64,000 nucleotides of DNA from Escherichia coli (GCF_003334255.1 NZ_QOWU01000007.1); one strand, 5' to 3'. Counted from the first letter of the stretch, positions 19,701 through 23,064 are shown. Numbers and translations are program-made. Notes: generated by a model not told the origin, from the sequence alone.

Positions 19701-19716
19701 TTTCGTTTTTTAGTCA

Positions 19717-19751
19717 TAAAAAACCTGCCAGCGATGGCAGGTTTTTTTTTG
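19717..19751 (+). terminator. Rho-independent terminator after typA
   Basis: AAAAACCTGCCAGCGATGGCAGGTTTTTTTTTG. Confidence 0.85.
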
Positions 19752-19916
19752 CCTGTCGTGAGCGCACACCAATGCGAGTATCTCCCTTATAAGTCTGTGG
19801 TTACGTCAATAGAGAGCTTTGTCACAATTATCTGCAAAGTCATACGCCGTTAATTGCTTTCTTTTTTGGCGTAAGCGTAAGATGCTTCATCTGGTTTAAA
19901 CCAAAAGGATTAAACA

Positions 19917-20627
19917 ATGGCGGAGAATCAATCCACCGTAGAAAATGCAAAAGAGAAACTGGATCGGTGGTTGAAAGATGGCATCACCACGCCGGGTGGA
20001 AAACTCCCTTCAGAAAGAGAGCTGGGAGAACTGCTGGGCATTAAACGTATGACGCTGCGCCAGGCGTTGTTGAACCTCGAGGCAGAATCCAAAATCTTCC
20101 GTAAGGATCGTAAGGGGTGGTTCGTGACCCAGCCGCGATTTAATTACAGTCCGGAGCTGTCGGCGAGCTTTCAGCGGGCCGCAATTGAGCAAGGGCGAGA
20201 GCCTTCCTGGGGGTTTACCGAGAAAAACCGTACCAGCGATATTCCCGAGACGCTCGCGCCACTGATTGCAGTGACGCCATCAACTGAACTCTATCGCATC
20301 ACCGGCTGGGGGGCGCTGGAAGGACATAAAGTTTTCTATCACGAAACATATATTAATCCTGAAGTTGCTCCGGGCTTTATTGAACAACTTGAAAACCACT
20401 CATTTTCTGCAGTCTGGGAAAAGTGCTACCAAAAAGAGACGGTAGTAAAAAAATTGATTTTCAAACCCGTCAGAATGCCGGGCGATATCAGCAAGTATCT
20501 TGGCGGTTCTGCGGGTATGCCAGCGATCTTAATTGAAAAGCATCGCGCCGACCAGCAAGGCAATATTGTCCAAATAGATATTGAATATTGGCGATTTGAG
20601 GCCGTAGACCTCATCATTAATCTGTAG
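19917..20627 (+). CDS. yihL: GntR-family transcriptional regulator (HTH plus UTRA effector domain)
   Basis: 236-aa ORF with an N-terminal GntR HTH (LPSERELGELLGIKRMTLRQAL). Confidence 0.85.
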   Translation: MAENQSTVENAKEKLDRWLKDGITTPGGKLPSERELGELLGIKRMTLRQALLNLEAESKIFRKDRKGWFVTQPRFNYSPELSASFQRAAIEQGREPSWGFTEKNRTSDIPETLAPLIAVTPSTELYRITGWGALEGHKVFYHETYINPEVAPGFIEQLENHSFSAVWEKCYQKETVVKKLIFKPVRMPGDISKYLGGSAGMPAILIEKHRADQQGNIVQIDIEYWRFEAVDLIINL

Positions 20628-20634
20628 GTGTTTT

Positions 20635-21615
20635 ATGGTGACAATAAATAACGCAAGAAAGATTCTACAACGTGTCGACACTCTTCCTCTTTATTTACAT
20701 GCTTATGCCTTTCATTTAAATATGCGGCTGGAAAGAGTGTTGCCTGCTGATTTACTTGATATCGCAAGTGAAAATAATCTACGTGGCGTCAAAATCCATG
20801 TTCTCGATGGCGAGCGTTTTTCTCTTGGTAATATGGACGATAAAGAACTCTCTGCCTTTGGGGATAAAGCCCGCCGTCTGAACCTTGATATTCATATTGA
20901 AACCAGCGCCTCAGATAAGGCATCTATTGACGAAGCCGTCGCCATCGCGTTGAAAACTGGGGCATCGTCCGTACGTTTTTATCCACGTTATGAAGGTAAT
21001 TTGCGCGACGTATTATCGATTATCGCTAACGACATTGCCTATGTACGGGAAACGTATCAGGACAGCGGCCTGACTTTTACGATCGAGCAGCATGAAGATT
21101 TAAAAAGTCATGAGCTGGTGTCGCTGGTCAAAGAAAGTGAGATGGAATCTCTTTCCTTACTGTTTGATTTTGCGAACATGATCAATGCAAATGAGCATCC
21201 CATCGACGCTTTAAAAACGATGGCACCGCATATTACCCAGGTCCATATCAAAGATGCCTTGATCGTTAAAGAACCGGGTGGCCTGGGTCATAAAGCCTGT
21301 ATTTCAGGTCAGGGTGATATGCCGTTCAAAGCGTTATTAACGCACCTTATCTGCCTGGGTGATGATGAGCCGCAGGTGACGGCATATGGCCTGGAAGAAG
21401 AGGTTGATTACTATGCGCCGGCGTTCCGCTTTGAAGACGAAGATGATAATCCGTGGATCCCTTATCGCCAGATGAGTGAAACACCATTGCCAGAAAATCA
21501 TTTACTGGATGCGCGGTTACGTAAAGAAAAAGAAGATGCAATTAATCAGATAAATCATGTGCGTAACGTACTACAACAAATCAAACAAGAGGCAAACCAT
21601 CTTCTGAACCACTAA
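20635..21615 (+). CDS. yihM: Sugar phosphate isomerase/epimerase (xylose-isomerase-like TIM barrel)
   Basis: 326-aa ORF, 8 bp downstream of yihL (operon). Confidence 0.8.
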   Translation: MVTINNARKILQRVDTLPLYLHAYAFHLNMRLERVLPADLLDIASENNLRGVKIHVLDGERFSLGNMDDKELSAFGDKARRLNLDIHIETSASDKASIDEAVAIALKTGASSVRFYPRYEGNLRDVLSIIANDIAYVRETYQDSGLTFTIEQHEDLKSHELVSLVKESEMESLSLLFDFANMINANEHPIDALKTMAPHITQVHIKDALIVKEPGGLGHKACISGQGDMPFKALLTHLICLGDDEPQVTAYGLEEEVDYYAPAFRFEDEDDNPWIPYRQMSETPLPENHLLDARLRKEKEDAINQINHVRNVLQQIKQEANHLLNH

Positions 21616-21716
21616 TAAGTTTTAACTCATACGCAGTTAATAAAACCATTCCATATGAATGGTCGGTATCTTATTGCCTTTAAAACAGTGATTTTAAAAA
21701 TCGCTTAGGGGATGTT

Positions 21717-22982
21717 ATGCTCACGAAAAAGAAATGGGCGTTATTTAGTCTATTAACACTGTGTGGCGGTACAATTTATAAATTACCGTCGCTGAAAGAT
21801 GCGTTTTATATCCCGATGCAGGAATATTTCCATTTGACCAATGGTCAAATTGGTAATGCTATGTCGGTAAACTCATTTGTCACCACAGTGGGCTTTTTTC
21901 TGTCTATTTATTTTGCCGATAAACTACCGCGCAGATACACCATGTCATTCTCACTCATTGCGACAGGATTACTGGGTGTTTATTTGACGACAATGCCGGG
22001 GTATTGGGGCATCCTCTTTGTCTGGGCGCTATTTGGCGTTACTTGCGACATGATGAACTGGCCGGTCTTGCTCAAGTCGGTAAGTCGATTGGGCAATAGC
22101 GAACAACAAGGTCGGTTGTTTGGCTTCTTCGAAACAGGGCGTGGCATTGTCGATACCGTGGTGGCATTTTCTGCGTTGGCAGTATTTACCTGGTTTGGCA
22201 GTGGCTTATTAGGTTTTAAAGCAGGCATCTGGTTCTATTCCCTTATTGTGATTGCCGTAGGCATTATTATTCTCTTTGTCCTGAATGACAAAGAAGAGGC
22301 ACCGTCCGTTGAGGTGAAAAAAGAAGACGGAGCATCGAAAAACACCAGTATGACCTCGGTGCTGAAAGACAAAACTATCTGGCTTATCGCTTTTAACGTC
22401 TTCTTCGTTTACGCGGTTTACTGTGGCCTGACATTCTTCATTCCATTCCTGAAAAACATCTATCTATTGCCCGTTGCGCTGGTGGGGGCTTACGGCATCA
22501 TTAACCAATACTGTCTGAAAATGATTGGTGGACCGATTGGTGGCATGATTTCAGATAAGATCCTGAAATCGCCAAGTAAATATCTATGCTACACCTTTAT
22601 CATTAGTACCGCTGCGCTCGTACTGTTGATTATGCTGCCGCACGAAAGTATGCCGGTCTATTTAGGGATGGCATGTACGCTGGGCTTTGGCGCGATAGTC
22701 TTTACACAGCGAGCCGTATTTTTTGCACCTATCGGCGAAGCAAAAATTGCTGAAAATAAAACAGGTGCGGCGATGGCGTTGGGTAGCTTTATTGGTTACG
22801 CTCCGGCGATGTTCTGCTTCAGTCTGTATGGCTACATTCTGGATTTAAATCCGGGGATTATTGGCTACAAAATCGTGTTTGGCATTATGGCCTGCTTCGC
22901 ATTCAGTGGTGCGGTGGTTTCCGTAATGCTGGTTAAGCGTATTAGCCAACGTAAGAAAGAGATGCTGGCGGCTGAAGCTTAA
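21717..22982 (+). CDS. yihN: MFS-family transporter
   Basis: 421-aa ORF with 12 predicted TM helices. Confidence 0.85.
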   Translation: MLTKKKWALFSLLTLCGGTIYKLPSLKDAFYIPMQEYFHLTNGQIGNAMSVNSFVTTVGFFLSIYFADKLPRRYTMSFSLIATGLLGVYLTTMPGYWGILFVWALFGVTCDMMNWPVLLKSVSRLGNSEQQGRLFGFFETGRGIVDTVVAFSALAVFTWFGSGLLGFKAGIWFYSLIVIAVGIIILFVLNDKEEAPSVEVKKEDGASKNTSMTSVLKDKTIWLIAFNVFFVYAVYCGLTFFIPFLKNIYLLPVALVGAYGIINQYCLKMIGGPIGGMISDKILKSPSKYLCYTFIISTAALVLLIMLPHESMPVYLGMACTLGFGAIVFTQRAVFFAPIGEAKIAENKTGAAMALGSFIGYAPAMFCFSLYGYILDLNPGIIGYKIVFGIMACFAFSGAVVSVMLVKRISQRKKEMLAAEA

Positions 22983-22987
22983 TTAAT

Positions 22988-23064
<77 letters not shown>

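Follow-up and report, generated by a model that had tools for sequence, protein, structure and literature searches.

Three neighboring genes, yihL, yihM, and yihN, are among the remaining genes of unknown function in Escherichia coli K-12, where they lie beside the sulfoquinovose genes. In a 64,000-nucleotide (nt) stretch of E. coli DNA (GCF_003334255.1, NZ_QOWU01000007.1), called the window from here on, they occupy positions 19917–22982 and code for a repressor, a putative isomerase, and a transporter. The three genes travel as one unit, independently of the sulfoquinovose genes. The reading we favor, although only tentatively, is that yihLMN forms a catabolic cassette that is autonomous, horizontally mobile, and inducible by its substrate, and by which an organophosphate, possibly one that bears nitrogen, is imported and isomerized. 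A repressor, a transporter, and one enzyme make up a conventional type of system, and the genes are long-known y-genes. What is new here is the separation from sulfoquinovose, an operator that matches a peak from chromatin immunoprecipitation with exonuclease digestion (ChIP-exo), the architecture of the promoter, and a candidate class of substrate.

The search for that substrate is narrowed in several ways. The sulfoquinovose link is removed, control is of the Crp-type catabolic kind, the candidates are phosphorylated, possibly nitrogen-bearing, sugar-like compounds, and the lone operator, as the one strong ChIP-exo target, offers a ready-made reporter. Once the substrate is identified, the metabolic map of E. 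coli would gain a nutrient and an enzyme activity, and every member of the family could be annotated.

A unit that travels on its own

All three genes are open reading frames (ORFs) on the + strand, in the order L-M-N in the ORF listing of the window. The first, yihL (19917–20627, 236 amino acids), encodes a GntR/HutC-family repressor with a winged helix-turn-helix and a UTRA effector domain; yihM (20635–21615, 326 amino acids) encodes a predicted xylose-isomerase-like TIM-barrel enzyme, putatively metal dependent; and yihN (21717–22982, 421 amino acids) encodes a major facilitator superfamily (MFS) transporter with 12 transmembrane segments. The gaps between them are 7 nt (start minus stop = 8) and 101 nt, and the Shine–Dalgarno sequence of yihM, AGGTG, overlaps the stop codon of yihL. 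The region is 100% identical to several RefSeq genomes, in which the same DNA is annotated as a GntR family regulator, a member of the sugar phosphate isomerase/epimerase family, and an MFS transporter. An earlier note on this DNA had described a tightly linked, unidirectional regulator-isomerase-transporter module with the look of a small catabolic or import operon. The linkage and the coordinates hold exactly, and the identities are confirmed by matches to PF00392 and PF07702, PF01261, and PF07690. The operon character gains support from a YihL ChIP-exo peak at its own promoter and from the activation of yihLM by Crp, both described below.

The arrangement is not due to chance, since the same order recurs in dozens of genera. 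A scan with the YihM family alignment gave 80 species-level loci, one genome per species, and about 57 of these keep strict L-M-N order and strand, across Enterobacterales, Aeromonas, Neisseriaceae, Acinetobacter, and Photobacterium. The flanking genes of different genera have nothing in common (in Morganella, the eut operon and nirBD; in Aeromonas, efflux and signaling genes), and typA lies upstream in 12 of the 80 loci.

This distribution bears on the suggestion, also made in the earlier note, that the module is an accessory branch of sulfoquinovose or organosulfonate catabolism, moving or isomerizing a sulfo-sugar or a C3 sulfonate. The suggestion draws on the adjacency to ompL-yihOPQRSTU-yihVW in K-12-type genomes, on the resemblance of YihN to an organic-anion carrier, and on a transcriptome study in which yihLM and yihUTS are both among the Crp-activated units (PMC8085971). 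A gene-neighborhood and co-occurrence analysis of the 80 loci, which the note had proposed as a check, does not support an association with the sulfoquinovose cluster: ompL, yihO, and yihP (with or without yihQ) lie within 8 kb of the cassette in only four loci (Escherichia whittamii and three Citrobacter), and the contexts in Aeromonas, Morganella, Serratia, Photobacterium, Acinetobacter, and others are unrelated to it. The co-localization with yihOPQRSTUV that marks genes of the sulfoquinovose (sulfo-EMP) pathway is not a feature of the family at large.

Of 5426 complete E. coli genomes, 4423 (about four fifths) carry the cassette and about 1000 lack it, and it is gained and lost independently of the K-12-type sulfoquinovose cluster, for all four combinations of the two occur. 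Some genomes have both. Others have the cassette with a different cluster of DeoR, kinase, aldolase, dehydrogenase, and MFS genes and without ompL-yihOPQ. In the third combination, the cassette is deleted, and a remnant of the 3' end of yihN, 66 nt long in one genome (locus L090, 3950–4015), is left beside ompL-yihOPQ; the fourth has neither. The rare adjacency, the unrelated flanks, and these four combinations show that the adjacency in K-12 is incidental. The regulator of the cassette is also its own, and it has essentially one target in the genome. An accessory role in organosulfonate metabolism is largely refuted by distribution, and we now regard it as highly improbable.

The replacement cluster can be seen in strains OkiPb01681 (L089, 10194–16138) and 30345_1#335 (L091, 7909–14855), where it takes the place of the ompL-yihOPQRST segment. 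It consists of a DeoR regulator, a sugar kinase, a yihU-like reductase, an aldolase, a zinc alcohol dehydrogenase, and two MFS transporters. Escherichia sp. MOD1-EC7003 and some Citrobacter seem to have it next to the cassette as well, on the downstream side.

Could the cassette be a decaying, functionless remnant in E. coli? Besides the roughly 1000 genomes without it and the deletion scar with its piece of yihN, truncated YihM variants exist, and insertion sequences (IS) interrupt the genes in several strains. The cassette is often a target of ISVsa5, IS903B, IS3, IS30, and IS1 in otherwise identical E. coli strains; these insertions and the absence from so many genomes make it appear dispensable in many lineages. 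However, the ORFs are intact in more than 4200 E. coli genomes, YihN is 71%–98% conserved across genera, the operator is invariant, YihL binds its own site in vivo by ChIP-exo, and a yihN knockout shows a phenotype (PMC8131027). Decay is a reading to which we give hardly any credence.

A paralogous second cassette also exists. Identity to the E. coli proteins is about 60% for its enzyme, about 45%–49% for its regulator, and about 51% for its transporter, and Citrobacter sp. R56 holds both copies (L012 and L049).

Control of the cassette

The spacer upstream of yihL contains a perfect 12-base pair (bp) palindrome, TGGTTTAAACCA (19892–19903), which lies 14–25 nt upstream of the ATG of yihL and overlaps the predicted transcription start. 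It has the form of a HutC-type operator, whose consensus is TGGT-N4-ACCA / GT-N-TA-N-AC, and nothing else in the window matches it, even at one mismatch. About 50 loci have the exact 12-mer at the same place ahead of their yihL orthologue, and it is conserved from Aeromonas to Photobacterium, in spacers that are otherwise unalignable. In Marinobacterium and related Oceanospirillaceae, three to four tandem exact copies, 22–26 bp apart (L064, 7125–7210; L067, L078, and L084), fill the divergent spacer between the yihL-yihM pair and an operon for an ATP-binding cassette (ABC) importer; a Rhodobacterales genome has two copies.

The E. coli records NC_000913.2 and NC_000913.3 differ in length by 1,977 bp, and yihL is at 4060447 in the newer of the two. 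With epitope-tagged YihL, a published ChIP-exo experiment gives three sites in the coordinates of the older record, NC_000913.2, of which the strongest (signal/noise 60.5, at 4058436–4058459) has yihL as its nearest gene and is not bound by RNA polymerase; the other two have a signal/noise of about 5. When the two frames are reconciled through the difference in length, the palindrome falls inside the strongest peak. YihL is therefore found, as a HutC-subfamily regulator should be, on a palindromic operator of the HutC form.

Next to the operator, a predicted sigma-70 promoter (19854–19883, + strand) has a −35 hexamer TTGCTT (19854–19859), an 18-nt spacer, and a −10 hexamer TAAGAT (19878–19883). 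In an alignment anchored on the palindrome, TTGxxx and TAxxxT hexamers keep their positions upstream of the operator in all aligned genera, so the operator falls on the predicted start. Genomic SELEX has placed a constitutive RpoD holoenzyme site in the spacer between typA and yihL (PMC3946193). Further upstream, a candidate site for the cAMP receptor protein (CRP; 19808–19829), centered about −71.5 from the predicted start, has a conserved right half, TCACA (19822–19826), and a left half that is degenerate in E. coli (AGAGA). A TGxGA-N6-TCACA-like footprint recurs, equally far from the operator, in Serratia, Buttiauxella, Pragia, Edwardsiella, Morganella, and Aeromonas, although the surrounding DNA differs. 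YihL binding and the Crp dependence of yihLM are published; the exact CRP site and repression by promoter occlusion we infer. The layout is the regulatory logic of an inducible catabolic operon.

The regulator and the phosphonate question

The YihL cluster carries the GntR (PF00392) and UTRA (PF07702) domains of the HutC subfamily, and its full-length matches are to the HutC, PhnR, and PhnF models and to the NagR and DasR structures. On TIGR03337 (PhnR), YihL scores 183.4 bits, below the cutoff of 296.75, and the next family scores 51; the nearest named relatives are true PhnR proteins, at 30%–34% identity. The linkage to phnSTUV and phnWX that is typical of PhnR is missing, the neighbors of yihL being typA, yihM, yihN, and ompL. 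YihL is thus best viewed, by its sequence, as a probable sister family of PhnR, the 2-aminoethylphosphonate regulator. The nearest relatives with known effectors (PhnR, FraR, and NagR/DasR) sense phosphate- or phosphonate-bearing ligands, an analogy that would favor a phosphate ester as the substrate. FraR, which regulates fructose-asparagine use in Salmonella, has likewise been placed in a "PhnR clade."

The same scores raise the possibility that a 2-aminoethylphosphonate-like compound is imported, sensed by a PhnR-like YihL, and processed by YihM. No other NCBIfam model comes near PhnR in its match to YihL, some databases already label YihL orthologues "regulator of 2-aminoethylphosphonate degradation," and the ABC systems that replace YihN in other lineages (see below) score best on PhnT2, PhnS, and PhnU models. 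However, YihL remains under the PhnR cutoff, FraR of the same clade governs a pathway that does not involve phosphonates, and the promoter is under Crp control, with no convincing Pho box upstream of yihL by eye. A search of the literature for TIM barrel in combination with phosphonate found nothing, and we know of no C–P-cleaving enzyme with the fold of YihM. Phosphonate use is, in our judgment, quite unlikely.

The enzyme and the transporter

YihM matches PF01261 (AP_endonuc_2). Its structure prediction, another check proposed in the earlier note, gives a TIM barrel with a predicted local distance difference test (pLDDT) score of 95.6, and the best structural neighbors of the model are isomerases and epimerases; neighbors in the AlphaFold database bear generic names only. 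A long C-terminal helix (residues 288–325) is specific to the family. Across 22 diverse members, E151, H153, E154, E160, D178, N181, H204, R114, and R265, among others, are invariant, and E249 is conserved save for a Gln in the most distant members. Judged by conservation and spacing, E151, D178, H204, and E249 are the putative metal ligands, a spacing that we take to match the classical metal tetrad of the superfamily, as in psicose 3-epimerase. The conserved R13, R114, K206, R265, and R278 would fit an anionic ligand. The family is small, with 47 clusters at E ≤ 1e-30 among 1.84 billion representatives. Its longer members (P0139 and P0217) were considered as informative fusions and dismissed, because only the TIM-barrel domain is present.

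YihN orthologues carry PF07690 (MFS_1). The single sequence has no match in the PDB and a family profile is needed; searched against all PDB chains, this profile finds only GlpT (E = 3.8e-8) and SLC37A4 (about 6e-6). YihN would therefore seem to be a sister group of the organophosphate:phosphate antiporters (OPA) GlpT and SLC37A4 rather than one of them, and it is probably the importer of the cassette's substrate. A 2021 study describes it as a transporter of unknown substrate whose knockout shows reduced uptake of many dyes, the pattern of an "influxer" (PMC8131027).

Genes that accompany distant relatives

Distant relatives of YihM keep other company, although the contigs of P0123, P0126, and P0140 are too short to show it and that of P0139 is uninformative. 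In rhizobia and Pseudogulbenkiania (where YihM is 63% identical), an ABC system stands in place of the MFS carrier. The ATPase of this system reaches 432 bits against PhnT2, and the binding protein has matches to PhnS models only, followed by the structure 5t1p and then by the structures of Fe3+, AfuA, PotD, and pyridoxal-phosphate (P5PA) binding proteins. In Marinobacterium, four YihL operators serve the L-M pair and a divergent ABC operon whose binding protein scores 266 bits against the agrocinopine receptor AccA (the next family, 125) and whose last gene encodes an IMPase/HisN-type phosphatase. Rhizobia and a Rhodobacterales genome also have a phosphatase of this type, encoded right after M. 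One 37%-identical member of the YihM family has a glycerol-kinase-like FGGY kinase and a GlpO-like FAD oxidase on one side and a FucA-like class II aldolase on the other. This layout resembles the erythritol pathway of Brucella, in which the TIM-barrel protein EryC, of the same superfamily, acts on a tetrulose phosphate. Taken together, these contexts seem to point to phosphate esters of sugar- or polyol-like molecules, possibly nitrogen-bearing. The eut genes beside the Morganella cassette were considered as a hint of phosphoethanolamine and set aside, as the adjacency is a coincidence of a single lineage and the chemistry is implausible for the fold.

Other contexts hint at nitrogen and weigh against a plain organophosphate. 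Amine-sensing regulators of the MocR type replace YihL in Paracoccus, rhizobia, and an actinomycete; with such a regulator, the M-N pair itself is kept in Paracoccus, in the actinomycete, and on a high-GC contig labeled Sporosarcina. In three Photobacterium species, a gene for the imine deaminase RidA lies between the enzyme and the transporter of the paralogous cassette; an agmatinase-like gene overlaps M in a Rhodobacteraceae genome; and a Lys/Arg/Orn-type (opine-type) binding protein and an aminotransferase accompany a 35%-identical relative. These would suit a nitrogen-containing sugar conjugate that is imported without a phosphate, such as an amino sugar, an Amadori or Heyns product, or an opine-like compound. 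YihM would then resemble the fructoselysine 3-epimerase FrlC, which belongs to the same TIM-barrel superfamily, or would be a reverse-Amadori isomerase whose imine product is hydrolyzed. The regulator of the fructose-asparagine locus, FraR, counts for this possibility as well, being, like YihL, a GntR regulator of the PhnR clade. But each nitrogen hint is limited to one or a few lineages, the cassette has neither the kinase nor the deglycase of the frl and fra systems, the YihN family is like organophosphate carriers and not like the amino-acid/APC carriers of Amadori compounds, and IMPase-type phosphatases recur beside M. A nitrogen conjugate free of phosphate is unlikely on balance.

A 45%-identical metagenomic relative tells against an organophosphate in another way, since a shikimate dehydrogenase flanks it and IolD/IolE/IolG-like genes are nearby. 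Here, YihM could be a dehydratase or isomerase of the AsbF/IolE/IolI type that acts on dehydroshikimate, quinate-derived, or inosose-type substrates, and there are indeed weak sequence matches to AsbF and IolE. These matches are not significant (E = 0.076 and 0.003, respectively), the context is a single one, and the cassette has no dehydrogenase to produce a keto substrate. To our knowledge, E. coli K-12 also lacks the downstream protocatechuate and inositol pathways. A carbocyclic acid or cyclitol as the substrate is very doubtful.

A proposed mechanism

For the organophosphate cassette that we favor, the following course of events is proposed. When no inducer is present, YihL on the transcription start would block RNA polymerase. 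The substrate, or its imported or converted form, would bind the UTRA domain so that YihL leaves its operator, and cAMP-CRP at about −71.5 would then activate transcription. YihN would import the anionic compound, most likely an intact phosphate mono- or diester of a sugar- or polyol-like molecule, possibly nitrogen-bearing. YihM, with a divalent metal on E151/D178/H204/E249, would isomerize or epimerize it next to a carbonyl to give a mainstream sugar phosphate. A phosphate ester of this type would explain why one enzyme suffices. In other lineages, the same enzyme family would be fed by ABC importers of the AfuA/PhnS type or of the AccA type (agrocinopine, pyranose-2-phosphate), followed by an IMPase/HisN-type phosphatase.

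Several points weigh against this proposal, besides the nitrogen and shikimate contexts and the lack of an evident Pho box. The best NCBIfam match of YihN, TIGR00881 (the PgtP/OPA subfamily), reaches 71.9 bits, far below the cutoff of 407.75. In GlpT, the arginines R45 and R269 bind phosphate and substrate; they align to a Ser and to Tyr235 of YihN, so the pair is not kept. The arginine pair by which NagR holds the phosphate of its effector aligns to Gly130 and Gly132 of YihL. The absence of both pairs weakens the phosphate hypothesis but does not remove it, and the conserved K22, K27, K268, and R332 of YihN might substitute for the arginines of GlpT. The contexts of relatives that are 35%–50% identical may not be transferable to the E. 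coli enzyme.

The earlier note took the substrate to be unassigned, and rightly so: none for yihL, yihM, or yihN was found in the full text of the searchable literature or in RefSeq- and EcoCyc-derived annotation, and searches for Art22 and for PDB entry 5T1P led to no substrate of the cassette either. The MG1655 RefSeq record names all three products "putative," a 2022 survey still counts YihL among the transcription factors of unknown function, and yihL serves merely as a linked kan marker in another paper (PMC4759930).

We would rank the candidate substrates with organophosphates first, followed by non-phosphorylated compounds of the amino-sugar, Amadori, or opine type, phosphonates, cyclitols or dehydroshikimate, and organosulfonates. 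A bolder version of the organophosphate proposal is that the YihM family has a new activity, as a metal-dependent isomerase, epimerase, or esterase for an unusual environmental phosphate ester, with YihN as a new branch next to the organophosphate antiporters. Sugar-2-phosphates, agrocinopine-like diesters, and amino-polyol phosphates are candidates for the ester. We consider this a possibility, though on the unlikely side. If true, a widely mobile cassette would take up a phosphorylated compound and fix it in one step, and gut and plant-associated Proteobacteria would use a nutrient still missing from the metabolic map of E. coli.

Comparison with known systems

The cassette behaves as a repressor-controlled, Crp-activated catabolic operon of the usual sort. 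In function, it comes nearest to the uhpT/glpT, acc, EryC, and frl/fra systems, and it is a member of none of them. YihL fails the PhnR cutoff, YihN fails the OPA cutoff and lacks the arginine pair, and the cassette fails to co-occur with sulfoquinovose genes. With uhpT and glpT (OPA family, TC 2.A.1.4), it shares an MFS carrier for organic anions, whose profile finds only the GlpT and SLC37A4 structures, and a Crp-activated catabolic gene (yihLM). It differs in that YihN is far under the family cutoff, is without the GlpT arginine pair in the alignment, and is paired with a dedicated enzyme and a GntR repressor, not with a two-component sensor or GlpR.

In the acc operon of Agrobacterium, which serves agrocinopine, AccR is found with an AccA-E importer, AccF is a phosphodiesterase, and AccG is an IMPase-type phosphatase. 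The likeness to yihLMN lies in Marinobacterium, where an AccA-like importer and an IMPase/HisN-type phosphatase share the operator region with yihL-yihM, and in the import of an intact phosphorylated sugar derivative that is then processed. The cassette of the window, in contrast, has an MFS carrier and no phosphatase, its regulator is of the GntR/HutC and not the DeoR type, and there is no GDPD-type AccF, YihM being of another fold. EryC of Brucella, a tetrulose-4-phosphate racemase, is a xylose-isomerase-like TIM barrel, although its sequence identity to YihM is low. Unlike in the EryC pathway, kinase and oxidase are both missing from the E. coli cassette, whose substrate would thus have to be phosphorylated and oxidized on arrival.

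The frl and fra systems for Amadori compounds, with the GntR regulators FrlR and FraR, likewise combine a repressor of the HutC/PhnR clade (FraR is in the PhnR clade) with a transporter and a xylose-isomerase-like enzyme. They need a kinase and an SIS-type deglycase and use APC-type carriers, whereas all three are absent from yihLMN. In the phnR-phnSTUV-phnWX genes of Salmonella, finally, PhnR is the nearest named relative of YihL, and it is a PhnS/T/U-like ABC system that replaces YihN in rhizobia and Pseudogulbenkiania. The cassette differs from these genes in having no PhnW- or PhnX-type enzyme and in being under Crp-type, not Pho-type, control, with YihL under the PhnR cutoff.

Transcription and boundaries of the unit

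Is yihN transcribed together with yihLM? Two papers give the unit as "yihLM," without yihN (PMC3946193, PMC8085971), and cotranscription is therefore likely rather than certain. A terminator scan found no terminator-like site in the 101-nt spacer between yihM and yihN. The spacer is only 44 nt long in Aeromonas, whereas two species, Enterobacter sp. JUb54 and Serratia silvae, carry an ERIC-like insertion of about 125 nt in it. These observations favor read-through into yihN.

The same spacer can form two hairpins on the + strand, neither followed by a U-tract. The first, ACCATTC-CATAT-GAATGGT (21645–21663), keeps its stem by compensatory changes in Citrobacter, Pseudocitrobacter, Raoultella, and Enterobacter. 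The second, GTGATTTT-A-AAAATCGC (21688–21704), lies directly upstream of the Shine–Dalgarno sequence of yihN, and its stems covary across Enterobacteriaceae (GATTT/AAATC versus GGCGC/GCGCC versus GGCAT/ATGCC). The stems of both are preserved in Escherichia, Citrobacter, Pseudocitrobacter, Pluralibacter, Yokenella, Raoultella, and Enterobacter. They may set the stability of the transcript or the translation of yihN.

The gene order of the window is that of the E. coli chromosome, from polA through glnALG, typA, yihLMN, ompL, and yihOPQRSTU to yihVW. Upstream, the cassette is bounded by an intrinsic terminator after typA (19724–19750, + strand), CCTGCC-AGCGAT-GGCAGG, which is preceded by an A-run and followed by a T-run. 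A simple promoter and terminator scanner missed this terminator and the weak promoter of yihL, which is below its threshold; both were assigned from the sequence and from footprints across species. With an A-run 5' and a T-run 3' of the hairpin (19716–19750), the terminator could act bidirectionally. Downstream, ompL starts 90 nt beyond yihN on the opposite strand and is followed by yihO, yihP, and yihQ. Between the convergent yihN and ompL, two units of palindromic repeats of the repetitive extragenic palindromic (REP) type, read from the sequence (22988–23064), form the other boundary of the cassette. When the query is extended, a short REP-derived stretch accounts for thousands of extra megablast places.

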